A stretch of 64,000 bases of DNA, taken from the NCBI GenBank assembly GCA_020279385.1, contig GCA_020279385.1_4762.1; one strand, given 5' to 3'. Below the pieces are notes generated by a model that saw only the letters and a program-made list of their open reading frames with translations, ran no database searches and was not told where the DNA came from. The position numbers were made by a program, and so were the translations under genes. This DNA comes from a phage. Shown piece by piece: positions 8,575 through 46,281 of the stretch (positions within the stretch are counted from its first letter, which is position 1; each line of letters opens with the position of its first letter).

Positions 8575-10044
8575 CTATTCCCCATTGCCATTATACTTTC
8601 TTTGCTTAGTTATCCACACTCTAACCATCTCTACTGATTCACCGTCAGACGGATCAAGAGTTTTTCCTTTTTTCTTCATGCGGTACTTAAATCCGTTAAA
8701 TCTTGCATTCTCTTGCTCGTTAAAGTCGAACATCTTTTTAAATGATTTTCGCCCTTTACGCTCACCGCATTCTAGCGGAATCATTCGGTCTGTTATTACA
8801 TTGGCATCAGGTAGAAACGTTTTTAGATAATCTACCAACGCCCAATCAGGAACATATAGATTAACATTCTCCTTGCTCTCGTTGTCTCTCAGGTTACAAC
8901 GCAAACATAATTGAAATGCTGGTTCCAGATAATCAGACACATGACGCGCTTTCAAAAACTCGTTTGTTGGGAGATCGCAACTATTAGCAAGACCTTTTAA
9001 AATATCAATCTCCCATCGTTGAGGGTTAAAGCTGAACATCACAGCAACATTTTTATGATGAATGTAAGAGTTAAGACCATAAGATCCGTAAGGTATCCGC
9101 TCACCAATACCATTTGTGCACGCTTCTCGGTCCCGATTAACGGTATAAATGAAGTCATCGCCACATTCATTTTTAACCATATCAACAAGACGTTCAAAGG
9201 TATTGTTTGTTTCTGACTGGTGACGCGACCAGCGTTCGGAGTCAGTCATAAGGATGATGTTAACTCTATCTGTATTTTTATACTCTTTGAAATATAGTCT
9301 GGATTCTAGCGCACTCGGAACAAAATCGCAATTTGCATAGTATCGTAGATACTTCCCGCTATATGTATCAAAGAGATTTGCACATGCTATCGTAACCTTT
9401 TTAAAGTCTCCCCACGTACCGTGTTTGTTATCGTTCAAGAAAACAATTTTCGACCCATTCTTCCGGTGTCCTTCGTTATGTTTTACCATAACGTTGATTT
9501 TCTTCTCTAATAACGCCTCATAAAGCCCTCTAAGAGAAGAATCGATCATATCAGTACCATCCTTTGCACTTTCTATCTTTTCTTTGATAGCGGCCTTCTC
9601 AGAGTCTTTTAGAACTAAGTTCTGTAGGCATTCCGATTCGTCGGCGATTGGTTCGCAATGCTTCGTGATAAGTTCAAGATTAGACTTAAACGGATACTCA
9701 TTAAATTCAACCAGTTGAGGAACTTCATCAATGTAAAGAGCATAATCACCAAACATTTTTGAACGTTCCATATTAGATAACGCTGTATGTGTAATGAATA
9801 TCACATCAGCACCGTCTTTAACTGATTGCATTATCGACGCTTGCACTGTCTTAAGGCTTCTTAGTCTGGTGCTATCAATCAAGACAGCACGACCGCCCAT
9901 TCTTTTAAACTTATTGTAAGATTGTTCACTTAAAACACGAGATGGCGAAGCAATAACCGCTTTTTCTTTTGTCTCTAGGACGTGGGAAAGTATAGCATCA
10001 GTTTTCCCCGCCGCTGGCAATGCGATTAATGTTTCAATCTTCAT
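8575..10044 (-). CDS. P-loop NTPase of unknown family (helicase/nuclease-like?)
   Basis: 489 aa; Walker A LPAAGKTD at residues 9-16, Walker B YIDEVP about residue 110; no T4 counterpart recognised. Confidence 0.75.
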   Translation of the reverse strand: MKIETLIALPAAGKTDAILSHVLETKEKAVIASPSRVLSEQSYNKFKRMGGRAVLIDSTRLRSLKTVQASIMQSVKDGADVIFITHTALSNMERSKMFGDYALYIDEVPQLVEFNEYPFKSNLELITKHCEPIADESECLQNLVLKDSEKAAIKEKIESAKDGTDMIDSSLRGLYEALLEKKINVMVKHNEGHRKNGSKIVFLNDNKHGTWGDFKKVTIACANLFDTYSGKYLRYYANCDFVPSALESRLYFKEYKNTDRVNIILMTDSERWSRHQSETNNTFERLVDMVKNECGDDFIYTVNRDREACTNGIGERIPYGSYGLNSYIHHKNVAVMFSFNPQRWEIDILKGLANSCDLPTNEFLKARHVSDYLEPAFQLCLRCNLRDNESKENVNLYVPDWALVDYLKTFLPDANVITDRMIPLECGERKGRKSFKKMFDFNEQENARFNGFKYRMKKKGKTLDPSDGESVEMVRVWITKQRKYNGNGE

Positions 10045-10331
10045 TAGAAACCCTTACGTCGTGCTTTCTGGCATTTCTTGATCATTTTATCAGAAATTTC
10101 GCGCTTAGGTGCAATCTCTTTCACACCGAAAGCACTAATGCCAAATTCAGAGAGAATATATTCAACTAACAATTCACGCACACGCGCTTTACCGATATTC
10201 ACGCCGTTATTTTTCAGATATGTCTGGCCTTCGACTTGCATCAGATCTAAATCTGCGTCGGTAATATTGATTTCTTCCATGCGCCCAAATCGAGAATAAA
10301 CCATGTGTGCGATTGCATTGTGTACTAACAT
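10044..10331 (-). CDS. Hypothetical protein
   Basis: Start reset to ATG 10331 preceded by GAGGAATATATT. Confidence 0.5.
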   Translation of the reverse strand: MLVHNAIAHMVYSRFGRMEEINITDADLDLMQVEGQTYLKNNGVNIGKARVRELLVEYILSEFGISAFGVKEIAPKREISDKMIKKCQKARRKGF

Positions 10332-10352
10332 AATATATTCCTCACTCAAGAA

Positions 10353-10460
10353 TTACTTAATGATACTTACTTTACCAGATCCATGACAATGAGCGCAACA
10401 CCCATCACCACGCAATCCTGTTCCGTTACAGTGTTTACACTTCTTCAACGGTAAAGCCAT
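10353..10460 (-). CDS. Small zinc-finger peptide (35 aa, 2x CxxCxGxG)
   Basis: MALPLKKCKHCNGTGLRGDGCCAHCHGSGKVSIIK; below ORF-track size cut-off; no clear SD. Confidence 0.3.
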   Translation of the reverse strand: MALPLKKCKHCNGTGLRGDGCCAHCHGSGKVSIIK

Positions 10461-10500
10461 TATAGCAAATAAAGCAATAATGAATACCGAAACTAAATTC

Positions 10501-10770
10501 TCAATAATCATAAATCGCCCTCAGTTCTTTATAGCCTCCAATGTGCTCGTTGTCAATGAATATCTGGGGGTATACAAACCGGAGGCTCTTTGAGTTTAGC
10601 CTCCCCGCCAGTTCTTCAATCATATCACGGTCGGGAATAATGTCAACCCCGACCTGCTTGAATACTGGTTTAAGTGTATACGGAATACCCAGATCATCCA
10701 GTAGCTTCATTGCACTAATACAACCATAACAATGATAAGCCTCTTTCGGTATACCGTATATCTCGATCAT
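10501..10770 (-). CDS. nrdH: Glutaredoxin-like protein (NrdH-like)
   Basis: 89 aa, CYGC redox motif, C-terminal YPQIFIDNEHIGGY glutaredoxin signature. Confidence 0.8.
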   Translation of the reverse strand: MIEIYGIPKEAYHCYGCISAMKLLDDLGIPYTLKPVFKQVGVDIIPDRDMIEELAGRLNSKSLRFVYPQIFIDNEHIGGYKELRAIYDY

Positions 10771-11249
10771 TTCTCAGCCTTTAATCTTTCTAGTTCTTCT
10801 TCCAGTTCCTTGATCCGTTGGTCACGTTCAAAGTCACGCTGTAACTTAGTGGCAAATACTCGCTTAAACTGATTGTAATCATCGATTTTAAACACTTCTT
10901 CTTCGCCATAGCGACGCACAGAAACTTCGTAGTTATTGAAGAATTGTTGCATCATTGCATCAGTAGTCAGTTCTGACGACACCACTTTAAAATAACGTTC
11001 TTCTGATTGCAAAAACCAGTTGTGCGCGTATTCCCGTACATCATCAACATTGCGGCAGGGGTATACCGTGCCATCAATTTCAATCACAGAAACATAATCG
11101 ATATCTGGTTCATGGCGATCAAACGCAATAACTTTAAATGGACGGTCTCCGATAAACTCTGCTATTGCATCATTTGCAACGCTAGAGTTTGCAAAATCTT
11201 CTCTCGTTTTATAATCTTTCCACTGATAGGTCATACCAACAACAAACAT
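10767..11249 (-). CDS. Paralog family A protein (MxWExGKTY family)
   Basis: Shares FANSS..A..IGDRPFKV core and C-terminal coiled coil with next three genes; start reset to ATG 11249 after GAGG. Confidence 0.6.
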   Translation of the reverse strand: MFVVGMTYQWKDYKTREDFANSSVANDAIAEFIGDRPFKVIAFDRHEPDIDYVSVIEIDGTVYPCRNVDDVREYAHNWFLQSEERYFKVVSSELTTDAMMQQFFNNYEVSVRRYGEEEVFKIDDYNQFKRVFATKLQRDFERDQRIKELEEELERLKAEK

Positions 11250-11250
11250 A

Positions 11251-11799
11251 TTACCAACCTCGCTCTTCACCAATCAAAAATTCAACTTCACGACGTTTAA
11301 TATCTTCTTGAAGGTCTTTAATCTTCTGGCGATCTTGCATGATTTCGTCCATCTTGTCAAGTGCTGCAATAAAATCATCGAAACGTTCAAAGGTTTTACC
11401 TTCATTTGCTTCGCCAAATTTAACCATTGTCAGACCATAACGACTACTAAACAGACGTTTCAACTGTCCAACGATCTTAGAATCATCGTTCACCTTTTCT
11501 TCTGGTTCTTTCACTGTTTCAACTTCACGAAAGAATTTTCTATCGAATGGACTAAAGAAATATGTTGCAGTCCAAATGTCTTTTCCTGTAGCAGTTTTCG
11601 CCGTATGATAAACACCGTCTAGCTCTATTGCATCAATCCATCCGTTACCCTCGATCTCGATGATGGTAAATGGCTTGTCACCAATAGCTGCACTAATATC
11701 GCTGTTAAGTGGAGAAAGAACACCTTCTCCGTTAGTAATAAACTCAGTTTTAGCGTTTTCATCTTTCCAAGTGTAAGTTTTACCAATTTCCCATTTCAT
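11251..11799 (-). CDS. Paralog family A protein
   Basis: MKWEIGKTYTWKD...; tandem paralog. Confidence 0.65.
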   Translation of the reverse strand: MKWEIGKTYTWKDENAKTEFITNGEGVLSPLNSDISAAIGDKPFTIIEIEGNGWIDAIELDGVYHTAKTATGKDIWTATYFFSPFDRKFFREVETVKEPEEKVNDDSKIVGQLKRLFSSRYGLTMVKFGEANEGKTFERFDDFIAALDKMDEIMQDRQKIKDLQEDIKRREVEFLIGEERGW

Positions 11800-11811
11800 A
11801 ATATATTCCCC

Positions 11812-12276
11812 TTAACCGATTTTATCAAGTTCGTTTAATGCTTTCTCTGCTTCCTGTATAGCTTGCACCCTTTCCGGCATTTTGTCAAGAAAATCTTTCA
11901 ACTCTTCAAAACTGGAGATATGACGCAAGGCGTTAGCACCGATAGCCGCATGTGATTTGCATTCAAAGCGGATTTTATAATTATCCATCGCCAACTTGAG
12001 AAGATCAATTAATTTAGATTCTTCTGGAATAATAATTTCTTCAAATCTGCTACGGTCATGATCCAGAAACCAACAAGATAGACCTACATCGGTTGAACTC
12101 ATATAAGTTCCATCATGAAGATAAACAGACCGCACGTATCCTTTTTTCGCATCAACCGACGCAACTTTAAACGGTAATCTCAGATATTTCAAATAATCAA
12201 CATCATACCATTTAAAAAATTGGTTTGCATCTTTTACATCTTTCCACGCATAGGTCTTACCAGCTTCCCATTTCAT
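11812..12276 (-). CDS. Paralog family A protein
   Basis: MKWEAGKTYAWKD... from ATG 12276. Confidence 0.6.
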   Translation of the reverse strand: MKWEAGKTYAWKDVKDANQFFKWYDVDYLKYLRLPFKVASVDAKKGYVRSVYLHDGTYMSSTDVGLSCWFLDHDRSRFEEIIIPEESKLIDLLKLAMDNYKIRFECKSHAAIGANALRHISSFEELKDFLDKMPERVQAIQEAEKALNELDKIG

Positions 12277-12280
12277 AATA

Positions 12281-12808
12281 TCATCTCTCATTTTTGATAC
12301 GTGATTCTAATTGGATCATACGGTCGCGCGTTTGTTTGTATTCTCGGATAGCACCGATCCGGCTAGGCATACCATCCAGTACGCTCTTAATACCTTCTAG
12401 GGTAGTAATTTTGGCAATGCTATTATGTAACCCCATCTTATCGATCAACTGAATGTCGTAGGCTTCCATAAGCAGACCCAGTCGTTCTAAAGTTAGGTCT
12501 TCTTCTTTTTCTTCCGAATCTGGAATCTTAGGTTCAATAGTAACTTCGGTAAAGAAACGACGCTCACCTGCCCAAAACCACACGCCGGAACAGCCAATAG
12601 GGGATTCTTTTAACGTCATAGAGTCGAAATTACTACCAATAATAGTAATTTCTCTAACATCACCATCATCGTCAAGGTCTTCTACCCTAAACGGGCGACC
12701 AGCCAACAAGTCAACAATACATCTGTTAATAGACGACGAAAATTTAGTCAGTTCGGCTTTCGACGCTTCGCATTCAATCTTGTAAGTTTTACCAACTTCC
12801 CATTCCAT
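12281..12808 (-). CDS. Paralog family A protein
   Basis: MEWEVGKTYKIE... from ATG 12808 after GAGGTG. Confidence 0.65.
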   Translation of the reverse strand: MEWEVGKTYKIECEASKAELTKFSSSINRCIVDLLAGRPFRVEDLDDDGDVREITIIGSNFDSMTLKESPIGCSGVWFWAGERRFFTEVTIEPKIPDSEEKEEDLTLERLGLLMEAYDIQLIDKMGLHNSIAKITTLEGIKSVLDGMPSRIGAIREYKQTRDRMIQLESRIKNER

Positions 12809-12818
12809 AATAATCACC

Positions 12819-13322
12819 TCAAATAATTTTCACTGGAATACTATTAACAATCTTGTATTGTACTTGATTGTCAGACCCCCGCCACGGCTTCTTCGTTGGC
12901 ATATCTTTAATATAACGACCATCTATGAACATGTCAACTGATTCTACAATTTTTCTTTGCTCATCATTCAATTGGTCAAGGGTATAACCGGACCATAGCC
13001 AAATATCTTTATTTGGCATCCATGATTTTACTTCATCGATGATCCGCTGTACACCCTTTAAATTGCGTTTATACAGTGGATCGCCACCTAAGAATGTTAG
13101 CCCCTGAATAAAATCAGGTCTAAGCAGATCCAGAATCAATCCCATTGTATCATCTGTGAATGGTTCCCCGTTCTTAGGATTGAGTAGACTGGAATTAAAG
13201 CAACCATCACATGCGTGTGAACATCCGGTAACGTAAAGGGAGACTCTCACTCCCTCACCGTTAACCATATCACAATCTTTAATATCGGCATAGCGTAGTT
13301 TGCCGTATGTATCAGAACTCAT
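12819..13322 (-). CDS. nrdG: Anaerobic ribonucleotide reductase activating protein NrdG (radical SAM)
   Basis: CSHACDGC CxxxCxxC motif, GGDPL, WRGSDNQV as in T4 NrdG. Confidence 0.9.
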   Translation of the reverse strand: MSSDTYGKLRYADIKDCDMVNGEGVRVSLYVTGCSHACDGCFNSSLLNPKNGEPFTDDTMGLILDLLRPDFIQGLTFLGGDPLYKRNLKGVQRIIDEVKSWMPNKDIWLWSGYTLDQLNDEQRKIVESVDMFIDGRYIKDMPTKKPWRGSDNQVQYKIVNSIPVKII

Positions 13323-13464
13323 ATTCAATTACCCCGAACTCGTTTACAATCTGCGCTTTATAGTAACCACCGCGAGATGCTAATAGATAAGCTGGGCTTA
13401 GGTATTCGTATTCACGGATTTCTACTTGTGCGTTTTCAGTTTCCCAAATCAGTAAAGTCCACAT
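13312..13464 (-). CDS. Possible small ORF (49 aa) overlapping nrdG start
   Basis: ATG 13464 downstream of promoter 13507-13535 and SD GGAGAA; MWTLLIWETENAQVEIREYEY... Confidence 0.25.
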   Translation of the reverse strand: MWTLLIWETENAQVEIREYEYLSPAYLLASRGGYYKAQIVNEFGVIEYEF

Positions 13465-13506
13465 GTTCGATTCTCCTGTAAAGTTGTATCTCGTCTTGAT
13501 GAATAT

Positions 13507-13535
13507 AGTATAGGGGATCTCGCGATCCCCGTCAA
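13507..13535 (-). promoter_or_regulatory. Early promoter TTGACG-[GGGATCGCGAGATCCCC]-TATACT
   Basis: Palindrome fills spacer; upstream of nrdG. Confidence 0.5.
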
Positions 13536-13539
13536 GCGT

Positions 13540-14073
13540 TTATTTTAAATTTTTTCGAATGTATTCAGACCATTCCTTCCCTGTCATTTCGGACCCGTTC
13601 TGGAAACTGAAATATTCATACGGCATCGAGTCAAGATAAAACAGGATCATACATCGCGCCATATAATACCAATCACGATTAAAGTAAACTACGTTATCAC
13701 CAGTACCATCAGCACCTTTATCATAACCATCTCGGGTACGGGCGACCCATTGAATAGTATCATTTTTCTCACGGATAGTCACAGGTTCCCAATATCCAGC
13801 ACATCCAGCATGACCACACGAACAAGTAAGGAAATATTGCCCTTTTGCTTTGTTGTCATCCCATTCACGATGGATTGGTTCGATCTCGTGAAACAGTGCC
13901 AAACAATCATGATTATGCAACACTGGCTTACCATCAATCAATGCATGGAATGTATACAAACGACCAGTAGACAAATAGCTATCCTCGCGCTCACAGAGTT
14001 CAATAGCAATCTTTTTAGCTCGTTCTTTGTGTCGTTGTGCTTTACGTTTACGGTTTAATGATTTCATAGTCAC
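13540..14073 (-). CDS. Hypothetical protein (Cys-cluster CSCGHAGC)
   Basis: 177-aa ORF between nrdD and nrdG (mobD position in T4, no HEG motifs seen). Confidence 0.55.
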   Translation of the reverse strand: MTMKSLNRKRKAQRHKERAKKIAIELCEREDSYLSTGRLYTFHALIDGKPVLHNHDCLALFHEIEPIHREWDDNKAKGQYFLTCSCGHAGCAGYWEPVTIREKNDTIQWVARTRDGYDKGADGTGDNVVYFNRDWYYMARCMILFYLDSMPYEYFSFQNGSEMTGKEWSEYIRKNLK

Positions 14074-14084
14074 CTCACATTATT

Positions 14085-14489
14085 TCAAAGATCGCGATAT
14101 TGTACATTATGAAAATGAGAACTTGCATTACCAATATTGTAGATAATAAATTCTTCATCCGGCGCTTGCGCTACAAATTGAGTATGAGCAACCGCCACAA
14201 CCTTAAAAATACGATCCGTGATCTTGTGTTTAATTTCTGCCCCTACTTCCATAGGAACATATTCATTTGTTTCTGTTTCAGTCGCAAAACAGCCATCTTC
14301 TTCATAAGCACGAACAAATCGGTCGCAATCAGTACGCTTAACAAATTCAAGAGTATATAATTCTCGTGAATTGTCGGTATAGACCAATACAGAATTATTA
14401 TGATAGCGAATCACATACAGGTTATTATCATCGTCAATTACGCAAAAGCTACGGATTCCTTCGCCTTGACTCCAGCAGATATTAACCAC
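14085..14489 (-). CDS. Hypothetical protein
   Basis: 134-aa ORF, GTG start after GAGGAACG. Confidence 0.5.
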   Translation of the reverse strand: MVNICWSQGEGIRSFCVIDDDNNLYVIRYHNNSVLVYTDNSRELYTLEFVKRTDCDRFVRAYEEDGCFATETETNEYVPMEVGAEIKHKITDRIFKVVAVAHTQFVAQAPDEEFIIYNIGNASSHFHNVQYRDL

Positions 14490-14651
14490 CGTTCCTCTAA
14501 TAAAAAACTTTCCTTTAAATTAAAACTAGTCAATGTGCTAGCGTGCATTTTAACAACAACACCATCGCCAATTTCCAGTTTACGAAGTTTAACTTCTTTG
14601 CTCAGTACACAAAACATCATCATGTTGTCCTCTCTTTGTTTCGATGTGAGC

Positions 14652-14679
14652 ATTATACATGAGCTAATCATGTTGTCAA
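14652..14679 (-). promoter_or_regulatory. Early promoter TTGACA-N16-TATAAT
   Basis: Immediately downstream of nrdD terminator. Confidence 0.5.
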
Positions 14680-14685
14680 CACCCC

Positions 14686-14717
14686 AAAACGAAAAAGCCG
14701 ACCCTTTCGGATCGGCT
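14686..14717 (-). terminator. Intrinsic terminator after nrdD
   Basis: GCCGATCC-GAAA-GGGTCGGC hairpin plus UUUUUCGUUUU. Confidence 0.65.
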
Positions 14718-14722
14718 AAAAA

Positions 14723-16585
14723 TTACATGTGCTTAACGCGGTTTACCATCTCGGAGTGTTTCCCGTGGTTAAATGGACGCAGATCAACAGATCCAAGATA
14801 TCCACTAACGCGACGGATAACATTCATATTTTCCAGATTGTCATTTCCGCAATCAGGGCAAACAAAACCCAACTCGGTCGCTCTCATTTCCTTATTAGAT
14901 CCGCATACATGACATACATCAGAAGGAGTATTAACACCGAAGTAGTGCAATTTATCCATTGCATAGTCTACTACAGTTTCAAGACCTTTCAGGTTGTTTT
15001 TCATGTCTGGGAACTCAACATAAGAGATCATGCCACCGGACGCCAGCCAGTGATAATCTTTCTCAAAGTCGATTTTCTCAAATGGTGTGACTTTCCGGTC
15101 TACGTCAAGGTGGAATGAGTTGGTGTACCAGTCTTTATCGGTAGCACCCTTAACAATACCAAATTGCGCTCGGTCCAGTCGATTAAATCGATAGCAAAGG
15201 CTCTCGGCTGGCGTACCGTAAAGACTAAACCCAAGTCCGGTTTCATCCTTCCATTTTTCAGTATAATGACGCAAGATCTTAAGAATATGTTTACCGTATC
15301 GCTGCGCATCTTCCGAATCAAACGGATGAACACCAAACAGGACGCTCAATACCTCATGTAAACCAATATATCCAAGAGAGATACTAGCGCGACCATCTTT
15401 CAACACTTCCAAAATTTCATCGTTTTGATGAATACGGAAAAATGCACCTTCTGTATACAGCACCGGAGCAACATTGGCTTTAGCCCCTTTTAAAGCGTCT
15501 ACGCGACTCATGAGCGCATCAAAACAAATAGGCATACGATTAGCTAGCTCTTGTTCGAATAGCTCAATTCTGCGCATTACAGACGCTTTACCAGCACGAC
15601 GCGCGGCAATAATGGCAATACGCGGAAGATTTAGAGTCACAACACCTAAGTTATTACGTCCGTCTAATACTTCTTCGCCTTTCTCATTATGCCACACACC
15701 CAGGAAGCTACGACAACCCATCGGGCTAACCGGAACACTAGATCCGGTGATACTACGGTTATTCTTCGCAGAGATATAATCAGGGTAAAGACGCTTACTA
15801 GAACATTCCAATGCAAGTTGCTTAATGTCGTAGTTCGGATCTTCCGGTTTAAGGTTTAATCCTTCTTCTAAGAACATCACCAGCTTAGGAAACACCGGAG
15901 TGATACCATCTTTACCTAAACCTTTAGTTCGAACTTTCAGGATCGCTTTCTGAATCAGTTTTTCTTCCCAGCTAGTCCCCATACCAAAGGTTAAAGTCAC
16001 AAAAGGCGTTTGACCGTTGGTGGAGAACAAAGTGTTGATCTCATATTCCAACGCCTGATATCCGTCTAGCGTTTCTTTTTCTGTCTTCTCTTGTGCATAG
16101 AGAGTATCAGCTTTGATTCCGTAGGTTTCGGCATCAGCAAGGTGTTTATGATATGTTTTCTCAACGTATGGCGCTAAAACCTGATCGATGTTTGCAATTG
16201 TGGTCCCTCCATATTGATGACTCGCCACCTGTGCGATAATTTGAGCGGTTACAGCACATGCAACACCGATCGATTTCGGACTTTCGATTTGTGCGCTACC
16301 CAATTTAAAACCATTCTCTAACATGTCTTTGAGATTAACAAGACAGCAGTTAGTAAACGGCATAGCGGGTGCATAATCCATATCATGATAATGAATGTCA
16401 CCGTCTACATGCGCTTTATAGATGTGCTCAGGTAACACGGTTTTAGCAATCTGTTTAGACACAGCACCAGCAATCAGATCTCGACGTGTCGGGAATGTTC
16501 GCGCGTCTTTGTTCGCGTTCTCTTTGCTTACTTCGTTTTCTTTACCCGTTGCGATCTCTGTAATGTCTTTGATTAGTTTTTCCAT
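14723..16585 (-). CDS. nrdD: Anaerobic ribonucleoside-triphosphate reductase NrdD
   Basis: 620 aa, C-terminal glycyl-radical motif RRVSGYLG and Zn-ribbon CHVCGS..CPDCG. Confidence 0.95.
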   Translation of the reverse strand: MEKLIKDITEIATGKENEVSKENANKDARTFPTRRDLIAGAVSKQIAKTVLPEHIYKAHVDGDIHYHDMDYAPAMPFTNCCLVNLKDMLENGFKLGSAQIESPKSIGVACAVTAQIIAQVASHQYGGTTIANIDQVLAPYVEKTYHKHLADAETYGIKADTLYAQEKTEKETLDGYQALEYEINTLFSTNGQTPFVTLTFGMGTSWEEKLIQKAILKVRTKGLGKDGITPVFPKLVMFLEEGLNLKPEDPNYDIKQLALECSSKRLYPDYISAKNNRSITGSSVPVSPMGCRSFLGVWHNEKGEEVLDGRNNLGVVTLNLPRIAIIAARRAGKASVMRRIELFEQELANRMPICFDALMSRVDALKGAKANVAPVLYTEGAFFRIHQNDEILEVLKDGRASISLGYIGLHEVLSVLFGVHPFDSEDAQRYGKHILKILRHYTEKWKDETGLGFSLYGTPAESLCYRFNRLDRAQFGIVKGATDKDWYTNSFHLDVDRKVTPFEKIDFEKDYHWLASGGMISYVEFPDMKNNLKGLETVVDYAMDKLHYFGVNTPSDVCHVCGSNKEMRATELGFVCPDCGNDNLENMNVIRRVSGYLGSVDLRPFNHGKHSEMVNRVKHM

Positions 16586-16629
16586 TGTATCACCTATGAA
16601 AAAGCGGGATTTCTCCCGCTCGTTGATAG

Positions 16630-17124
16630 TTATTTTACCAGTTCTGCTAATTCTTTTTCCGCCGCTTCCAGTTCAGCTTTCAGTTGTTTGATCTCTTGTC
16701 GCTTCTTATTAGCGGCTTCCTGCTTACTATTTCGGATAATCTGATCTAGATATGAATCCCACTCCTGAATATTTTTGATAATGTAACCGTCAACATTAAT
16801 TGGTCGGAGATTTAGTACAGCTTCCAGTTTAGTTGCAAAAACTTTAATTGCTGGTGTGAAGTATTCATACTCGTTATCTTCAAACCAATAACCTAGACTT
16901 GCATTATCAATACGAAGACGAAGTTTAAGATCAAGGTCTTTATCTTCGGTGTAAAGATCTTTCACCTGCCCCATCGAGCTAACAACAACTTTAAAACGAA
17001 TTTTATCTACACCGCCAAAAACATCTTCAAGAATATCAGCAATTGAGCTATTAGCGCAAGATTGGTCGCTGAATGCGTCAAGATTTTCTTTAGTTACAGT
17101 ATACCAAATATCTTGTTTCCACAT
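16630..17124 (-). CDS. Paralog family A-like protein
   Basis: CANSSIADILEDVFGGVDKIRFKV core plus C-terminal coiled coil; conserved RBS GAGGATTATATTATG. Confidence 0.6.
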   Translation of the reverse strand: MWKQDIWYTVTKENLDAFSDQSCANSSIADILEDVFGGVDKIRFKVVVSSMGQVKDLYTEDKDLDLKLRLRIDNASLGYWFEDNEYEYFTPAIKVFATKLEAVLNLRPINVDGYIIKNIQEWDSYLDQIIRNSKQEAANKKRQEIKQLKAELEAAEKELAELVK

Positions 17125-17154
17125 AATATAATCCTCTCGTTGTTAAGTGGGAGT

Positions 17155-17182
17155 ATTATAGCATACTCCCTTTGCATGTCAA
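17155..17182 (-). promoter_or_regulatory. Early promoter TTGACA-N16-TATAAT with GGGAGTAT/ATACTCCC hairpin around -10
   Basis: Upstream of 16630-17124. Confidence 0.5.
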
Positions 17183-18357
17183 GCACCAACTTTTTTCTTT
17201 ACTGCTTTCACCTTCTGGCGAATTGCTCGAATCTCTTCGATCTCTTTTTCAGTCTCTTTAACAATTTCTTTGCGATTCTGAATATCTGTATCGAGATTAT
17301 CATCAAGTTTAGGCAGCATGTCAATCAAGAACTTTTTAAGGTCTTTCAGGTTTCGGATAACAGCACCTTCACCCATTACCGCAACACCAACACCATCCGG
17401 CAGATCACCAAACAGTTTAACCAGTTCAGACAGATGATCATGGTCTTCTAATGCTTCCTCCGGTTCAGATGGCAGTTCAACAAAGTTATAACGTTCATCA
17501 TTGCTGATCAAGTGATACCAGCAAAGCCCGAAAGATTTCGGTGTATATTCTACACCATCAATTTCAACCGCGTCAACACTTCCATAATCATCTACTTTAG
17601 TTACCTTAAATCCTTGTCCCAGCTTTTGAACAATTTCAACAACATGACTTGATACAGTTTCAGCGGTAAACCAATATGGCAAATTATGCTGATTTGGCTT
17701 GTAGCGTTCACCTACTTTAAATCTCTGACCATCCGCTTGCATAGAATGAAATTGTTGTTTCGTGATTTCCGCGAAGTATTCAAATTCGCCACCATCAAAC
17801 ACACAAGCCCATTGATCACAAAAACGATCTGCCTTAACAGTTTCACCTTTCGCGGTGATCATGGTAGCCGATCCATGAAATTCTTCTTCAACTAAAAAGC
17901 CATATTCGACAAAATCAACAAGTTTCATAGCTTCTTTGTGGTCTGGATCATGCTCTCCCCAGAATCGCTTAAATTCTTGCAAACCTTCTGGGGTAAACGA
18001 ATAACATTTACCTTTTTCAAAGTAAGTCGGCATTGCATCCTCTTTCTTGTTCATCGCTTCGTATGCCTCTTTTGAGATGCGTTTAAAGTATTTACGCTCA
18101 TTGTGCATAATCATAGTGGCCCAATAATCAACAATATCATTAGCGGAATAAACTACATCTCCAGCTTCAATAGTAATAACATGACCGTGGTCATCTTTTT
18201 CTAATACTTTAAAGCCCTTTTCTACGATTTCAGCAACCCGAATATGACCACGGCGCGAAGCATCGGTCAGAATAATTGAATAGCGAGAAAAGTCTAGAAA
18301 CTCATCTTTACCGCCTTCACGGAATGCATAGTAATGACCTTCAAAGAATTTAGCCAT
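17179..18357 (-). CDS. Paralog family B protein (internally duplicated, 392 aa)
   Basis: Contains two copies of the ...ERKYFKRI... module found in next two genes. Confidence 0.65.
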   Translation of the reverse strand: MAKFFEGHYYAFREGGKDEFLDFSRYSIILTDASRRGHIRVAEIVEKGFKVLEKDDHGHVITIEAGDVVYSANDIVDYWATMIMHNERKYFKRISKEAYEAMNKKEDAMPTYFEKGKCYSFTPEGLQEFKRFWGEHDPDHKEAMKLVDFVEYGFLVEEEFHGSATMITAKGETVKADRFCDQWACVFDGGEFEYFAEITKQQFHSMQADGQRFKVGERYKPNQHNLPYWFTAETVSSHVVEIVQKLGQGFKVTKVDDYGSVDAVEIDGVEYTPKSFGLCWYHLISNDERYNFVELPSEPEEALEDHDHLSELVKLFGDLPDGVGVAVMGEGAVIRNLKDLKKFLIDMLPKLDDNLDTDIQNRKEIVKETEKEIEEIRAIRQKVKAVKKKVGA

Positions 18358-18387
18358 AATATAATCCTCTCGTTGTTAAGTGGGAGT

Positions 18388-18416
18388 ATCTTACTACTCC
18401 CGTTTCATCATGTCAA
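18388..18416 (-). promoter_or_regulatory. Early promoter TTGACA-N17-TAAGAT with GGGAGTA/TACTCCC palindrome
   Basis: Upstream of 17179-18357. Confidence 0.45.
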
Positions 18417-18979
18417 GCGTTAAATGACTTTTGGATCTCTTTCAGTTCAGCTACTTTATCGGCGCTGAATTTAGCGTAGGTATCATGTCGAATAATTTCA
18501 CTTTCAAGAAAGGTTTCCAGCCGAGATCTATTTTCAATAAGGAACTCTTTCAGGTCTTCCGCGTTCTTGATAAAGATTTTATTGTCAGTAATGTCATCTT
18601 CAATCGCAAAGGAGATAGAGCGAACTTTACCAAACAAGTTAATCAGATCTTCCAGCGATTCTTCTTTCTTAACTGGTTTCATTTCTTCAAACTGCTTTTT
18701 AGTGATTCGTTTAAAGTATTTGCGCTCGCTTGCGTCAATCATGATTGACGCGCCCTCATAATCATGAGTTTCTACCAAATACACTTTACCCATAACATTA
18801 ACCGTAAGAACTTTAAAGCCCCTGTGAAGCACACCATACAGGAACTTGTTATGTTGTGGATAGCGTTTGATAAATTCCTCTGCGGACTCAGCATTACGGA
18901 AAGTGTAATAACGACCTCGTTCAAAAACAGCATCATTTGAAGACTTAGCTGGATACAATTTATACGTTTTCTGTACCAT
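18413..18979 (-). CDS. Paralog family B protein
   Basis: MVQKTYKLY... from ATG 18979 with GAGGATTATATT RBS; ERKYFKRITKKQFEEMK motif. Confidence 0.6.
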   Translation of the reverse strand: MVQKTYKLYPAKSSNDAVFERGRYYTFRNAESAEEFIKRYPQHNKFLYGVLHRGFKVLTVNVMGKVYLVETHDYEGASIMIDASERKYFKRITKKQFEEMKPVKKEESLEDLINLFGKVRSISFAIEDDITDNKIFIKNAEDLKEFLIENRSRLETFLESEIIRHDTYAKFSADKVAELKEIQKSFNA

Positions 18980-18993
18980 AATATAATCCTCTA

Positions 18994-19266
18994 TCATTTC
19001 ACTAATTGAACAGCACGAAACAGAATGCGGTCACACGGAAGAAGCATAAATTCCCAACGCGGATCAAAGTCTTTAGCGGTATATGTTTTCCCATCAACCG
19101 AGATTTCACTTACATAACCAATAGGTGACACTTTAAGAACAGTAAACCCATTCTTGATGACTTCGTAGGTATCTTTCAATCCTTCGTAGTCATCCTCTAG
19201 GAAGTCTTTACGTGCTTGCTCAGATTTAAAAACATAGGCCACACCGGATTTAAACATCTTACGCAT
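18994..19266 (-). CDS. Paralog family B short member
   Basis: MRKMFKSGVAYVFKSEQARKDF... from ATG 19266 after AAGGAGAATCAA. Confidence 0.5.
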   Translation of the reverse strand: MRKMFKSGVAYVFKSEQARKDFLEDDYEGLKDTYEVIKNGFTVLKVSPIGYVSEISVDGKTYTAKDFDPRWEFMLLPCDRILFRAVQLVK

Positions 19267-19297
19267 TGTTGATTCTCCTTCTTGATTAGATGGGAGT

Positions 19298-19326
19298 ATT
19301 TTACTACTCCCATTTCTTATTGTCAA
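19298..19326 (-). promoter_or_regulatory. Early promoter TTGACA-N17-TAAAAT with GGGAGTA/TACTCCC palindrome
   Basis: Upstream of 18994-19266. Confidence 0.45.
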
Positions 19327-19329
19327 CTA

Positions 19330-19803
19330 CTATCTTAATCTTTGTATAAATTGTTTCTTATACTTCTTCGTGATCTCTTCTCTTGTATCCGCGTCACAGT
19401 AATCGAAACCTTCTGCGTCCATAATAGCAACCATCTCCGAGCGTGTCAAGCGTGAAAATCGTTTTACTTTATCAACAGCATATTGAGGATGTAAATGATT
19501 GTTGGTGTAGTCTCCTTTGATGTAATTAACATAGTTTGTAGCCCAAACAACGAAATCAGCACCTAAAGCACCAACACCAAACCGTTTAAAGTCTCCGGTC
19601 AACGATCCTTCTAGGCGGTTGCAACACGAATGAAGCAATCCCCTTACGCGGCCTTGCCCTTTCCCATCTAGATCATGATCATGGTCAAGATGGTTTTTGC
19701 TCATATCCTCAAAAAGTGGCAATTGACAAAGGGGGCAAATGCCCCCCTGTTTTTCGAATAGTTCTTGTTTATACTCTTTAGCACTCTTAGCAGTCAGTAA
19801 CAT
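19330..19803 (-). CDS. 49: Endonuclease VII (Holliday junction resolvase) gp49
   Basis: 157 aa from ATG 19803; CPLC..HLDHDHDL..GKGQGRVRGLLHSCCN matches T4 endo VII. Confidence 0.9.
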   Translation of the reverse strand: MLLTAKSAKEYKQELFEKQGGICPLCQLPLFEDMSKNHLDHDHDLDGKGQGRVRGLLHSCCNRLEGSLTGDFKRFGVGALGADFVVWATNYVNYIKGDYTNNHLHPQYAVDKVKRFSRLTRSEMVAIMDAEGFDYCDADTREEITKKYKKQFIQRLR

Positions 19804-19827
19804 AAATTCACCCTCCAAAGAAGGTAT

Positions 19828-20109
19828 TTAACCATTAATCTTGTTTTTGACTACAAAGGATCGGAACTCATCAAAACCACCTATATAATCACCATTATAG
19901 AAAATCTGCGGCATGGTGGCAATAACTTCTACCCCTGCGCGATCCTGAATGTCGGCAATGATAGAATCAATCTTTACCGGACGACCGTTTTCGTCCACAC
20001 CATCATTAACCGGAATGTAGATGTAAGGGATCTTACGCGATTCACAAAGGCGCTTTGCATTCTGGCAATACTTACAGTTATAACCTTCAAAACCAAAAAT
20101 TTCTACCAT
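19828..20109 (-). CDS. nrdC: Thioredoxin/glutaredoxin NrdC
   Basis: CKYCQNAKRL redox motif and MPQIFYNGDYIGGFDEF as in T4 NrdC. Confidence 0.85.
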   Translation of the reverse strand: MVEIFGFEGYNCKYCQNAKRLCESRKIPYIYIPVNDGVDENGRPVKIDSIIADIQDRAGVEVIATMPQIFYNGDYIGGFDEFRSFVVKNKING

Positions 20110-20110
20110 G

Positions 20111-20866
20111 TTATACCTCATTCAGTTCTATATCAAGTTCATTTTCAATAATATAGGCATTAACTGCCCGTGCCGCATCATCTTCTGTGTCAAATCTTCC
20201 TATATACACACCGCGAACTTTAGCACCGTAATTACCTTGTTTTGGTACTTTGTAAACGTATCTATGACGGGAACTTGCTGCTTTTTGGAGCTTCTTGCCA
20301 TATTCAGACTTTGCATATTCTATATCATCAATCTCGTTTATACAAGACCTATCACCAAAATGTTTCAACGCTGCAAGATTATATGCATACGCCGCACCGA
20401 TCTCGGAGGGAAAATATCCTAAATGTATAGACTTCCCATCCAACATTATTGCACCAGTCCAATAACCTTTATTCTTATTAAACGACACACCTTTATACTT
20501 CGAATATGTTTTGCATTTGGTCTTGCTCATATTCATATTATTTTGTTTGCTTGTCGTCTCTCTAAGGTTTTCAATGCGGCTATTATAACGATCTCGGTCT
20601 TTATGATCTATATACTTAGGACAATGACCATGAAACATATGATAGATAACACGGTGCATACGTTCGTATCGCTCGCCAGTCCATACAATACGATACCCAT
20701 CGGGGGTATCACTTCCAGCTAATCCGTTTATAACACCTTTTCGGTGCGGGTGAATCTTCCACCTAAGAAAACCATCATCATAATAAAACCGTGAATGATA
20801 TAAATCATACAAACGTTTATCTTCTGGAGTCTTGTGTATAACATCATATTTTAACATTGGTGACAT
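20111..20866 (-). CDS. HNH homing endonuclease with tandem AP2-like DNA-binding domains
   Basis: IDHKDRDRYNSRIENLRETT HNH motif; two YKGVSF/YGAKVRGVYIGRF AP2-like modules. Confidence 0.8.
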   Translation of the reverse strand: MSPMLKYDVIHKTPEDKRLYDLYHSRFYYDDGFLRWKIHPHRKGVINGLAGSDTPDGYRIVWTGERYERMHRVIYHMFHGHCPKYIDHKDRDRYNSRIENLRETTSKQNNMNMSKTKCKTYSKYKGVSFNKNKGYWTGAIMLDGKSIHLGYFPSEIGAAYAYNLAALKHFGDRSCINEIDDIEYAKSEYGKKLQKAASSRHRYVYKVPKQGNYGAKVRGVYIGRFDTEDDAARAVNAYIIENELDIELNEV

Positions 20867-24228: not shown

Positions 24229-24535
24229 CAAGTTTTCTTCTCTGTGAAATTCGTGCAATCTTCCTTTCATGATTTCGTTGGTTCTTGTCTTCACAGTTTA
24301 CCCACTCAACAAGGTCTTTGCCTAACTCGAAAGCCCATTCTCGGTCCTGCTTTACGTTTTGTAGGTATGGACTTTCCGACACTCGACGAAGTGATCTTGT
24401 CGTAACAAGAATGATCCCAGGAATGTTCGGATGTTCCTTTCCATATACAATAGGACGCGAGTCACTATCAATACCCTGTAAGAAGGTGTATCCTGAATCA
24501 CTTAGGATCATATACATTTTCATTTCATCCATCAC
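24194..24535 (-). CDS. Hypothetical protein
   Basis: 113-aa ORF. Confidence 0.45.
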   Translation of the reverse strand: MMDEMKMYMILSDSGYTFLQGIDSDSRPIVYGKEHPNIPGIILVTTRSLRRVSESPYLQNVKQDREWAFELGKDLVEWVNCEDKNQRNHERKIARISQRRKLDEIKNRILQSM

Positions 24536-24789
24536 AGTTTCCTCAACCAGTTATTAAAGCGAGTAAACCATGATGCTTTTCGTGCTTCTTTTACTTTATG
24601 TGCCCGCAAACCACTGAAACACCATTCATAATCATCACTGAAACATGATTCAACAGGAACACCCGCATTTCGTAGTTCTCTGGTCTTTATCATGAATCCT
24701 TGACATAAGGGGCGACCTTCAACAATGATAGGAAGTTTAACTTTTTCCATGAAAGTATACCCAGCACGGTCAATAATTTCAATCTTCAT
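24532..24789 (-). CDS. Paralog family C protein (KLPIIVEGRP family)
   Basis: MKIEIIDRAGYTFMEKVKLPIIVEGRP...; RBS GAGGATTATATT. Confidence 0.6.
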   Translation of the reverse strand: MKIEIIDRAGYTFMEKVKLPIIVEGRPLCQGFMIKTRELRNAGVPVESCFSDDYEWCFSGLRAHKVKEARKASWFTRFNNWLRKL

Positions 24790-24807: not shown

Positions 24808-25011
24808 TTACACTTCCCAGGCTTCTTTGCTAAGAAAACACCATTTATACTCAGGAGAATAACCTTTAATCGGTACTCCAGCTTTTTGTAATTCCTGCGT
24901 TTCAACAACATAATCATGCCCATACGGTCGGCCTTCCACGATGATAGGAAGTTTAACACCTTTCATGAAAGAATATCCACCATCGTCAAAAATTTCAATT
25001 TTAATTTTCAT
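24808..25011 (-). CDS. Paralog family C protein
   Basis: MKIKIEIFDDGGYSFMKGVKLPIIVEGRP... Confidence 0.6.
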   Translation of the reverse strand: MKIKIEIFDDGGYSFMKGVKLPIIVEGRPYGHDYVVETQELQKAGVPIKGYSPEYKWCFLSKEAWEV

Positions 25012-26257: not shown

Positions 26258-26479
26258 TTAAATGATCTCTGCTTCACCGTTAAGGAAGAAAGACCATGTT
26301 TTGTTAGGATAACGAAGCGCCCACGATTCAGCAGTTTTAACACCAGCTTCGAACAATTGACGGCTGGTTACTTTAGCCATACCATCTTCGATGGCAACGT
26401 TTTCAATAATCATCGGGTACTTAGCGCCACGCATGAAACCGAAGCCAGCGGAAGATTTGATAATTTTAACAGTTGCCAT
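26258..26479 (-). CDS. Paralog family C protein
   Basis: MATVKIIKSSAGFGFMRGAKYPMIIEN...; ATG 26479 after GGAGAATCAAAA. Confidence 0.6.
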   Translation of the reverse strand: MATVKIIKSSAGFGFMRGAKYPMIIENVAIEDGMAKVTSRQLFEAGVKTAESWALRYPNKTWSFFLNGEAEII

Positions 26480-26518
26480 TTTTGATTCTCCTAGAAAGTG
26501 TCGTGTTTCGATGGGTGT

Positions 26519-26547
26519 ATTATGCAATAACACCGGATCGCTGTCAA
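26519..26547 (-). promoter_or_regulatory. Early promoter TTGACA-N17-CATAAT
   Basis: GGTGT/ACACC palindrome around -10. Confidence 0.5.
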
Positions 26548-32376: not shown

Positions 32377-32407
32377 TTTAATACTCCTTTGTTGTTTCGA
32401 TGGGGGT

Positions 32408-32437
32408 ATATTACTACCCCCCGATCATGTGTGTCAA
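32408..32437 (-). promoter_or_regulatory. Early promoter TTGACA-N18-TAATAT with GGGGGTA/TACCCCC palindrome
   Basis: Upstream of 32041-32376. Confidence 0.45.
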
Positions 32438-32683
32438 CTACTTTTTCAAGATTTTTTTGATTGCATTCCAAAGACCTTTATTTCCAGGTTGTTTTGGTTC
32501 TTCGATCAGTGTCCATGTTCGACCGTCTAAGTGTGCACAATTTTTAAGGCAAATAAAAATCTGGTGTCCCTTATCAGCACGGATATAACCACTATTCGCA
32601 AATCTTTCATGTGGTGTATATTCATACAGTGTATTAGGTGTAATATACTTGCGGTTACTATAAGGTGTCATCACATACATCAT
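32438..32683 (-). CDS. Paralog family D protein
   Basis: KNCAHLDGRTW motif. Confidence 0.5.
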   Translation of the reverse strand: MMYVMTPYSNRKYITPNTLYEYTPHERFANSGYIRADKGHQIFICLKNCAHLDGRTWTLIEEPKQPGNKGLWNAIKKILKK

Positions 32684-32874
32684 GGTACTAACTCCCAACG
32701 ATCACCGCGAAGATGAGAACATCCACCATCAAGAAGTATCGTAATACGATAACCTATATCATCTTTGATGTAACCGATTGTCGGTGGATTTTCGTCGTCT
32801 CGTGCCGGGGTAAAATCATACATCTTTCCGGGCGTAATATCTTGTCCTTTATTGCTATTGGTATAAACTTGCAT
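32680..32874 (-). CDS. Paralog family D protein
   Basis: LDGGCSHLRGDRW motif. Confidence 0.45.
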   Translation of the reverse strand: MQVYTNSNKGQDITPGKMYDFTPARDDENPPTIGYIKDDIGYRITILLDGGCSHLRGDRWELVP

Positions 32875-40282: not shown

Positions 40283-40313
40283 TTTGATTCTCCTTTCGTT
40301 TGTTTGTGGGGGT

Positions 40314-40342
40314 ATCTTACTACCCCCGTTTCATGTTGTCAA
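40314..40342 (-). promoter_or_regulatory. Early promoter TTGACA-N17-TAAGAT with GGGGGTA/TACCCCC palindrome
   Basis: Upstream of 40124-40282. Confidence 0.45.
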
Positions 40343-45683: not shown

Positions 45684-45715
45684 CATAATACTATTTATCA
45701 ATTGAGGGTGATAAA

Positions 45716-46270
45716 ATGCTCTTTTCTTTCTTCCCTGCCATTGAATACAACGGCAAGATGATTACTGACATTGTGCGCAATTACCGCGCATATTTCAACG
45801 CAATAATTTCTGATTATAACATACAAACATATTACATTCAAGGTAGTCCACGACCGGAACAAGTTGCATATGAAGTATACGGAAACCAACAACTTTATTG
45901 GATCTTGCTGATGCTTAATGACGTATACGATCCGTTCCATGACTGGATCACTGATCAAGAGACAGCATATGAATCAGCCGAACAACGATATGCAAACGTA
46001 GGAGGAAATCAAGTATTATACCACGTTGATATTGACGGAAACAAGTATTGGAATCTTACCGAATATCCGAAAGGATCAAGCAATTGGTATGATAAAGGGG
46101 ATATTCATCACCGTTATTTGCAGTTTCATGGTGCATTGTCGGCGGTAGACACACTGGAAGATGCGATCCTCCGTAATGAGGAACGACGCAAGATCAAGAT
46201 CATAGATCCTACACAAATTAAACAATTTATTAACGCATTCATTCGAGAAATGGAAAAGGCTGATGTGTAA
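45716..46270 (+). CDS. 53: Baseplate wedge protein gp53
   Basis: MLFSFFPAIEY...YYIQGSPRPEQVAYEVYGNQQLYWILLM matches T4 gp53; TATAAATA late promoter upstream. Confidence 0.9.
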   Translation: MLFSFFPAIEYNGKMITDIVRNYRAYFNAIISDYNIQTYYIQGSPRPEQVAYEVYGNQQLYWILLMLNDVYDPFHDWITDQETAYESAEQRYANVGGNQVLYHVDIDGNKYWNLTEYPKGSSNWYDKGDIHHRYLQFHGALSAVDTLEDAILRNEERRKIKIIDPTQIKQFINAFIREMEKADV

Positions 46271-46281
46271 GGTGATTAATT

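Follow-up and report, generated by a model that had tools for sequence, protein, structure and literature searches.

The GoF/Frd.2/MotB.1 proteins of T4-like phages were recently described as a family with an LSm-like fold (Kim et al., 2025; PMC12152347). Their N-terminal domain (NTD) of about 80-90 amino acids (aa) forms a bent five-stranded antiparallel beta-sheet or barrel, whose nearest PDB structures are SH3-like barrels of the FeoA type, and a flexible linker joins this domain to a C-terminal domain of variable structure (PMC12152347). The family is confined to T4-like phages, where it is encoded by early genes, and the three T4 members (goF, frd.2, motB.1) are all dispensable in the laboratory (PMC12152347). 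Here we analysed a 64,000-nucleotide (nt) stretch of phage DNA (contig GCA_020279385.1_4762.1 of GenBank assembly GCA_020279385.1; hereafter the window) in which three adjacent minus-strand genes at 17179-19266, encoding the proteins p392, p188 and p90, share a repeated module. The locus is part of a hyperplastic, probably early-transcribed region of a Krischvirus and represents a paralog expansion of the GoF/Frd.2/MotB.1 family, in which p90 is a barrel only, p188 and its neighbor p164 are a barrel plus a tail, and p392 is three tandem barrels on one p188-like tail.

The window is 97-98% identical in nucleotide sequence to Escherichia phages JSE and RB49 over the region (97.8%), and it comes from an RB49/JSE-like T4-type coliphage genome of the Krischvirus group (Straboviridae). 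The three open reading frames (ORFs) lie between endonuclease VII gene 49 (19330-19818) and nrdD (14723-16585). The p392 gene (17179-18357, 392 aa) is the orthologue of RB49p058, named 'frd.2' in RB49; p188 (18413-18979, 188 aa) is the orthologue of RB49p059; and p90 (18994-19266, 90 aa) is the orthologue of RB49p060, a hypothetical protein in RB49. The RefSeq product label of both RB49p059 and RB49p058 is 'goF mRNA metabolism modulator'. A preliminary description of this DNA had given the protein lengths as 392, 189 and 90 aa; the first and last stand, and the middle product is 188 aa long, from a start that is annotated in RB49 and backed by a repeated cassette of ribosome binding site (RBS) and ATG. 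A further minus-strand gene between p392 and nrdD, encoding p164 (16630-17124, 164 aa, the RB49p057 orthologue), carries a diverged barrel and a tail, and it is a fourth local family member outside the coordinates of the original finding.

The shared module of about 90 aa was borne out by BLASTP, shuffled alignments, profile searches and AlphaFold2 (AF2) models. It had been described as an ERKYFKRI(T/S)K module common to the three genes and present twice in p392. While the module is indeed common to all three, p392 (at aa 87-96) and p188 each contain the literal ERKYFKRI(S/T)K string just once, with diverged counterparts elsewhere (GEFEYFAEITK and DERYNFVELPS in p392, CDRILFRAVQ in p90). The internal repeat of p392 was recovered by both formal alignment and structure prediction, and it comprises three copies rather than two: module 1 at aa 3-108 (18034-18351), which carries the literal ERKYFKRISK motif; module 2 at aa 113-207 (17737-18021), supported by a profile domain and the AF2 strand pattern; and module 3 at aa 213-299 (17461-17721), the p392 copy most like T4 Frd.2. 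The remaining C-terminal domain (aa 300-392, 17182-17460) is predicted to consist of a helix, a low-confidence segment and an amphipathic helix of about 55 residues. By BLASTP, the N-terminal module of p188 aligned to three separate sites in p392 (aa 2-124, 113-207 and 246-385), the last alignment continuing through the C-terminus.

Smith-Waterman scores, each evaluated against 200 shuffles, gave z-scores within p392 of 17.7 between the first and second copies (r1, r2) and 12.9 between the first and third (r1, r3). Comparisons with p188 gave 14.2 for r1 and 9.5 for r2, and pairs with p90 gave values of about 9-11 (r1 10.9, r3 10.1). We also built a hidden Markov model (HMM) from 91 distant relatives that included no window or Krischvirus sequences and none at least 40% identical to the window proteins, although these relatives had themselves been chosen with the window-derived profile A1, so that the test is not fully independent. 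This distant-relative HMM found three domains in p392 (aa 3-108, 59 bits; 113-207, 45 bits; 213-374, 94 bits, the last covering the tail as well) and recovered all eight window paralogs. Among them, p188, p90 and p164 matched at E <= 1e-18 (p90 at 4.1e-19; p164 at 1e-18 over HMM positions 3-158), and the next best of the 166 window ORFs scored E 0.077. An outside model, PHROG 622, likewise matched three stretches of p392, and p90 matched phrog_16115, 5347 and 622 in the PHROG comparison. The PHROGs labelled goF that match are 8944 and 13003.

The most basic alternative is that the module reflects a chance or compositional resemblance of unrelated small ORFs. Pairwise identities among the module copies are only 18-38%, neither Pfam nor NCBIfam holds a family for them, and p164 was missed by an HMM built from the family A proteins alone (E 0.4; see below), all of which speak in its favor. 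This explanation is nevertheless refuted by shuffle z-scores of up to 17.7, by the clean gap between E 1e-18 and 0.077 in the search with the window-free HMM, by a confidently predicted fold that is repeated within the p392 model, and by orthologues conserved with ratios of nonsynonymous to synonymous substitution (dN/dS, or omega) below 0.4. We therefore give it almost no weight. The three genes being paralogs, and p392 having arisen by internal tandem duplication of the module, are both supported.

Structure prediction gave the module a defined shape. In the AF2 model of p188 the barrel (aa ~20-100) consists of strands at 24-27, 55-60, 66-70, 77-81 and 89-92 with predicted local distance difference test (pLDDT) values above 92, arranged as b1, two helices and b2-b5. 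The p188 tail is modelled as a helix (109-118), a hairpin (124-137), a second helix (140-149) and a long amphipathic helix (151-187). In p392, the pattern of strand, helices, three strands, short helix, strand and helix is repeated at 9-102, 118-209 and 218-295, and is followed by tail helices at 306-317 and 337-391. Linkers with low pLDDT separate barrel and tail in p188 (aa 100-123) and p392 (aa 299-307). According to these models, each family protein is built on an SH3/LSm-like five-stranded beta-barrel of about 90 aa in which a helical insert separates strand 1 from strand 2. As a rule, the barrel leads through a flexible acidic linker into a helix, beta-hairpin, helix and long amphipathic helix; p90 is a single barrel without the C-terminal domain.

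The best fold neighbor in the PDB was FeoA, at 13% identity, as for the described GoF family, and the solved structures nearest in fold are barrels of the SH3-like or Tudor-like type (FeoA, MIB repeat, Tudor). Structural neighbors in the viral library (BFVD) were almost all proteins of T4-like phages, one of them named GoF, from phages of hosts that included Aeromonas, Serratia, Citrobacter, Acinetobacter, Pectobacterium, Proteus and Edwardsiella. No Hfq or Sm chain was found among the top 60 PDB structural neighbors, and the Pfam LSM/Hfq models did not match the proteins even at E <= 1. Scans of Pfam and NCBIfam as a whole gave no family model for these proteins, and sub-threshold matches (RecT, KIB1-4 propeller, LYR and others) were rejected as chance. 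A sequence search of the PDB with the family profile found no solved structure of the family; nothing meaningful was returned, and the best match, Mediator Med22 (E 0.014), fell on the helical tail.

Membership in the GoF/Frd.2/MotB.1 family could be evaluated directly against the T4 proteins. A profile made only from the 10 module copies of the window scored T4 GoF at 38.9, Frd.2 at 19.4 and MotB.1 at 12.5 bits, and five unrelated small T4 proteins below 0; with the distant-relative HMM the three scores were 77, 47 and 23 bits. The modules most like GoF are p188, A168 and A182 (z 9.4-11.3), and module 3 of p392 is specifically Frd.2-like (z 9.2 against the Frd.2 NTD), which accounts for the old RB49 gene name 'frd.2'. 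The features of the described family were found here as well: a five-stranded NTD barrel once in p188 and three times in p392 (AF2), a flexible linker with a variable C-terminal domain (the tails compare with the T4 tails at z about 0), and a place among the genes of a T4-like phage with sigma-70-type promoters upstream that predict early expression. When p188 and p392 served as queries in word-indexed homologue searches, close orthologues alone were recovered (at least 64% and at least 82% identity, respectively), and the distant relatives surfaced only through an exhaustive profile search, in which 1.84 billion proteins yielded only 107 representative clusters at E <= 1e-3.

The minus strand carries a second cluster of paralogs, here called family A, at 10767-12817, with a glutaredoxin-like gene on one side and nrdG on the other. 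It contains four adjacent genes, each encoding one barrel and a tail: 10767-11249 (160 aa), 11251-11799 (182 aa), 11812-12291 (154-159 aa, according to which start is used) and 12281-12808 (175 aa). In the preliminary description, the p392 group formed a separate family B, and p392 was thought to have a family-A-like C-terminal coiled coil that suggested fusion and domain shuffling between two distinct families. Our comparisons did not uphold either proposal. In an all-against-all BLASTP search of the window ORFs, the family A genes cross-matched p188, p90 and p392 at E 1e-4 to 1e-6, and they matched the distant-relative HMM at E 1e-23 to 1e-39. The HMM built from the four family A proteins matched p392 end to end at E 6.9e-18 (HMM 3-170 against aa 213-381) and also matched p90 (8.6e-9) and p188 (3.3e-8); module 2 of p392 and p164 were undetected by this HMM and were picked up by the broader distant-relative profile. 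In the joint alignment A1, both families share the barrel anchors (W/F)xxGxxY, an invariant F, (P/G)F.V, G.V, W and (E/D)Rx(F/Y)F, and the tail is also common to both. Families A and B are thus diverged branches of one superfamily with the same barrel-plus-tail architecture.

The origin of the p392 tail can be judged on the same evidence. A chimera that gained a family A coiled-coil tail by fusion or domain shuffling is compatible with the alignment of the p392 tail within the family A HMM, with a region rich in the promoter/stem-loop cassettes described below, which are known mediators of modular shuffling, and with the module-sized insertion or deletion with a replaced linker that exists in the family A gene at 11251-11799. 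However, A and B are homologous across both domains, the tail is already present in p188 and p164, and the p392 tail is nearest to that of p188 (z 8.9), followed by p164 (z 4.5), with family A tails at z <= 3.5. The cassettes, moreover, lie between genes, so they would shift whole genes and not domains. Since A and B belong to one superfamily and p188 already has a tail, p392 needs no family A donor, and we consider the chimera very improbable. As for the coiled coil itself, hydrophobic residues occupy heptad a/d positions of the long tail helices at a frequency of 0.55-0.69, compared with a background of 0.33-0.40 (0.69 against 0.36 for the p392 tail helix). The simplest history would be in-frame tandem multiplication of the N-terminal module in a p188-like ancestor.

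The genes of the p392 group are arranged among repeated intergenic cassettes. In RB49 and phi1, promoter-early stem-loop (PeSL) cassettes mark hyperplastic regions, serve as promoter and terminator at once, and undergo recombination by which entire ORFs are excised or inserted (Arbiol et al., 2010; PMC2839356). We found minus-strand cassettes of this type directly upstream of p90 (19286-19326; TTGACA, a 17-nt spacer and TAAAAT, overlapped by the stem-loop GGGAGTA..TACTCCC), of p392 (18376-18416; an exact match to the stem-loop motif) and of p164 (17143-17182; an extended -10 TG, repeat family D1). Each holds a strong sigma-70-type promoter (scan scores of 11/12, 10/12 and 12/12, respectively) and a stable hairpin (-12 to -15 kcal/mol, z -3 to -4, across the three; -13.8 kcal/mol, z -4.0 for p90; z -3.0 for p392; -15.2 kcal/mol, z -4.1 for p164). 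The stem-loop motif occurs four times against 0.05 expected. A 35-nt segment at 17122-17156, comprising the 3' arm of the stem, the 5' untranslated region (UTR), the RBS and the ATG of p164, is 100% identical to 18355-18389 at p392, and the p392 and p90 cassettes (18376-18416 and 19286-19326) form a 41-nt repeat with 83% identity. Copies of a GGGGGTA-type stem-loop are also found at 32402-32421 and 40308-40327. A search of 10000-20500 with Rfam at E <= 0.1 returned no match.

These cassettes resemble the described PeSLs (PMC2839356) as near-identical repeats upstream of non-essential genes in hyperplastic regions, and differ in that the GGGAGTA/TACTCCC stem overlaps the -10 hexamer, whereas the described PeSLs have a separate GGGG...CCCC element. 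By their positions, the transcription units are probably p90+p188, p392 and p164, each bounded by PeSLs, which would explain modularity at the level of genes. The multiplication of modules within genes is a separate process.

The expansion extends beyond the two clusters. A search through the remainder of the RB49 genome with the distant-relative HMM added one member, Dc2 (RB49p021, 211 aa, E 2.8e-10), at 11993-12628 of that genome and immediately upstream of the helicase gene 41. T4 GoF(D25Y) acts on gene 41 mRNA, and the position of Dc2 beside gene 41 may or may not be coincidental. A Krischvirus genome thus carries nine family genes, compared with three in T4, and 11 barrels, or 12 where the gene corresponding to 11251-11799 holds two modules. 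This gene encodes 182 aa in the window and is a 274-aa two-barrel gene in JSE, Phi1, KFS-EC, Sf20 and PHB13 (in PHB13, L008 1255-2079). The two alleles are near-identical save for a replaced linker and an in-frame block of 276 nt, which makes up one module; copies of a DRKFFREVE-coding sequence bound this block. A simple deletion between these repeats was rejected as the origin of the one-module A182, because the linker past the junction also differs. Phage ELT4 appears to have the short, 182-aa form. The p392 orthologues that we found (8 clusters, at least 82% identity) are all 391-392 aa long, and the triple architecture of p392 is old and maintained.

More widely in the family, several of the 107 representatives matched the profile in two or three stretches, and by sequence these proteins have two or three barrels and then a tail. 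One two-module example, of 246 aa, is from Yersinia phage MHG19 and has relatives (~30% identical) in phages of Enterobacter, Klebsiella, Edwardsiella, Kosakonia, Pectobacterium and Cronobacter. Two-module relatives of the protein P0056 occur in T4-like phages of Enterobacter, Klebsiella and Yersinia, and some records place the match under features labelled goF. A three-module protein from a metagenome, P0053, had no tblastn match in the phage collection. Tandem multiplication recurs within the GoF family.

To evaluate selection on these genes, the window was compared with a 170-kb metagenomic relative in which the eight genes are all present and their order is unchanged. Identity between the two is 63-87% for the paralogs and 96-99% for nrdC, endonuclease VII, nrdD and nrdG. 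The dN/dS values are 0.10-0.37 for the eight paralogs and 0.02-0.045 for those four genes, and the paralogs outpace the nucleotide-metabolism genes beside them in evolutionary rate by a factor of 5-15. The fastest-evolving member is p164 (63% aa identity, omega 0.28), and p90 has a dN/dS of 0.10 against the divergent relative. Within p392, omega is 0.27 for module 1, 0.16 for module 2, 0.11 for module 3 and 0.18 for the tail, and 75% of the positions of module 2 are invariant across nine orthologues. The invariant or near-invariant columns of the alignment (Y, F, F, G, F, G, W) are core positions, conservation being limited to hydrophobic and glycine residues of the core. These are genuine genes on which selection is purifying though relaxed, and the pattern fits a conserved scaffold with diversifying surfaces.

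We also looked at the two columns that correspond to the suppressor positions of T4 GoF. An aromatic residue stands at the D25 column in 4/10 window modules and 14/103 distant modules, and a basic residue at the G84 column in 5/10 and 32/102, respectively; the pair is F/K in module 1 of p392, F/R in A178 and Y/K in the second module of the 274-aa allele. Modules natively carrying suppressor-like residues are only a weak lead because both columns are simply highly variable across the family.

What these proteins do must be approached through the family. The only functional precedent is the GoF(D25Y) mutant, which post-transcriptionally stabilises mRNA bearing the gene 41 5' UTR (PMC12152347), and early post-transcriptional control is our best guess for that reason. 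We propose that the barrels may be ligand-binding adaptors with diversified surfaces, that the amphipathic tail helix could mediate self-association, and that tandem barrels would raise valency. By homology to T4 GoF, the most likely arena would be early post-transcriptional control of RNA, in which the proteins could bind RNA or block a host RNA-processing factor. Taken together, a paralog expansion of GoF/Frd.2 genes, a tandem origin of p392 and a binding-adaptor mechanism are in our judgment a probable account of the locus.

Several points weigh against this account. No function is known for any wild-type family member (PMC12152347). Most modules are acidic (pI 4.5-6, with a net charge of -20 for p392), which is atypical of RNA binders; the p188 barrel is the only basic one, at pI 9.4. 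The role of the tail as a coiled coil or in oligomerisation would depend on a predicted long helix and moderate heptad enrichment, and AlphaFold3 yielded no confident GoF multimers (PMC12152347). The p392 model has a predicted template modelling score (pTM) of 0.35, too low for the relative arrangement of the barrels to be read from it. In addition, wild-type GoF had no clear RNA effect in the published assay (PMC12152347), and this inactivity together with the mostly acidic modules makes a protein-binding role in host takeover nearly as likely as one in RNA control.

Under such a role, the family and its architecture would be the same, but the barrels would bind host proteins rather than RNA, as adaptors for host takeover or anti-defence that expanded in an arms race. 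This would agree with the protein-interaction character of the closest solved SH3-like and Tudor-like folds, with the acidic modules and the silence of wild-type GoF, with conservation limited to core residues while surfaces diverge, with dN/dS values higher than in neighboring genes, and with early, PeSL-flanked genes in a hyperplastic region. On the other side, the sole functional datum in the family, GoF(D25Y), is RNA stabilisation; no partner is known; dN/dS values below 0.4 give no sign of gene-wide positive selection; and no anti-defence evidence turned up, though none (PADLOC included) was sought. We regard this alternative in its full form as possible but the less probable one. Bolder still is the idea that the GoF-type barrel expanded in Krischviruses into a toolkit of natively active post-transcriptional regulators, with p392 oligomerising by way of its tail and serving as a multivalent chaperone or protector of RNA. 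Were this true, p392 would resemble an Sm ring built from tandem repeats, and the toolkit would number nine genes and 11-12 barrels per genome, including Dc2 beside gene 41. The aromatic and basic residues that several modules have at the D25 and G84 columns, where mutation gives T4 GoF its RNA-stabilising activity, would be in keeping with the idea. We think it improbable.

The locus offers material for further study. The GoF/Frd.2/MotB.1 family was recognised only in 2025, and a genus with nine paralogs, among them a stable three-barrel protein, provides natural variants with which to probe barrel ligand and valency, to which the one- and two-barrel polymorphism within the genus adds a further natural comparison. 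The locus is also a clean example of two layers of modular evolution, with whole genes bounded by PeSLs and domains multiplied in frame within them. A single family label would be the proper annotation for 'family A', 'family B', p164 and Dc2 alike.

Other features of the window were noted in passing. Two glutaredoxin/thioredoxin-like paralogs with 32% identity (10501-10770 and 19828-20121) each flank one GoF-family cluster, beside the anaerobic ribonucleotide reductase genes nrdG and nrdD. Between nrdC and dam, a 251-aa ORF (20111-20866, minus), whose motifs are HNH-like (HKDRDRYNSRIENLR) and AP2-like, resembles an inserted free-standing homing endonuclease; in RB49, nrdC and dam are adjacent and no gene occupies this place. 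The dam gene itself is a single 271-aa gene in the window and is split into gene calls of 49 aa and 177 aa in the metagenomic Krischvirus relative L009 (7437-8238), where it is possibly disrupted or interrupted. Two further sets of small paralogs among the hypothetical early ORFs are unrelated to the GoF family (24532-24789, 24808-25011 and 26258-26533; 32438-32698 and 32680-32874; BLASTP E 1e-22 to 1e-4 for such sets). At ~45700-46300, the GC skew changes sign and the coding strand turns from minus to plus, and this is the border of the early/hyperplastic region with a block of large plus-strand genes.

Among known systems, T4 GoF (comC-alpha, 141 aa) is one of the closest to the window proteins. 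Like them it is an early gene product with an N-terminal barrel of about 90 aa, the same anchor residues and a beta-hairpin-plus-helix element after an acidic linker. It differs in that its single barrel is followed by a short tail that lacks the long terminal helix, and its suppressor positions, D25 and G84, lie on the surface and vary throughout the family. The Krischvirus genes also lie at other loci than T4 goF, RB49 having no gene at the goF position between 39 and dexA. T4 Frd.2 (128 aa) and MotB.1 (119 aa) belong to the same NTD family as the window modules (PMC12152347) but, unlike p392, are single-module proteins with unrelated short tails, and the likeness to MotB.1 is marginal with the window-only profile (12.5 bits).

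The two-module GoF-like proteins of other T4-like phages share with p392 the tandem duplication of the same barrel on one polypeptide. They have two modules where p392 has three, end in a short GoF-like beta-hairpin and helix (with a ...RLxAIxxL... motif) rather than a long amphipathic helix, are only ~20-30% identical and are encoded at a different locus. The FeoA, SH3-like and Sm/LSm (Hfq) barrels are more remote. They have no sequence similarity to the window proteins (13% identity, no Pfam match), and the Sm/LSm proteins have an N-terminal Sm helix before b1, whereas the helices of the window modules are inserted between b1 and b2. The features that define the Sm/LSm/Hfq superfamily, whose members assemble into rings of six or seven subunits, include the Sm1/Sm2 motifs, an N-terminal helix with five strands after it and a match to the Pfam LSM/Hfq models, and these three are not those of the window modules. 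Given the absence of Hfq or Sm chains from the top 60 neighbors and of Pfam LSM/Hfq matches, the window proteins are classed as members of the GoF/Frd.2 family that are related to Sm/LSm proteins only in the likeness of their fold. In the literature that we found on the family, the three-barrel form, the long-helix tail, the nine-gene expansion in Krischviruses and the one-/two-barrel polymorphism are undescribed. The genes themselves belong to a family that has already been described and is already reflected in RefSeq product names, and the three-barrel p392 is an unusual architecture within that family and not a new kind of system.

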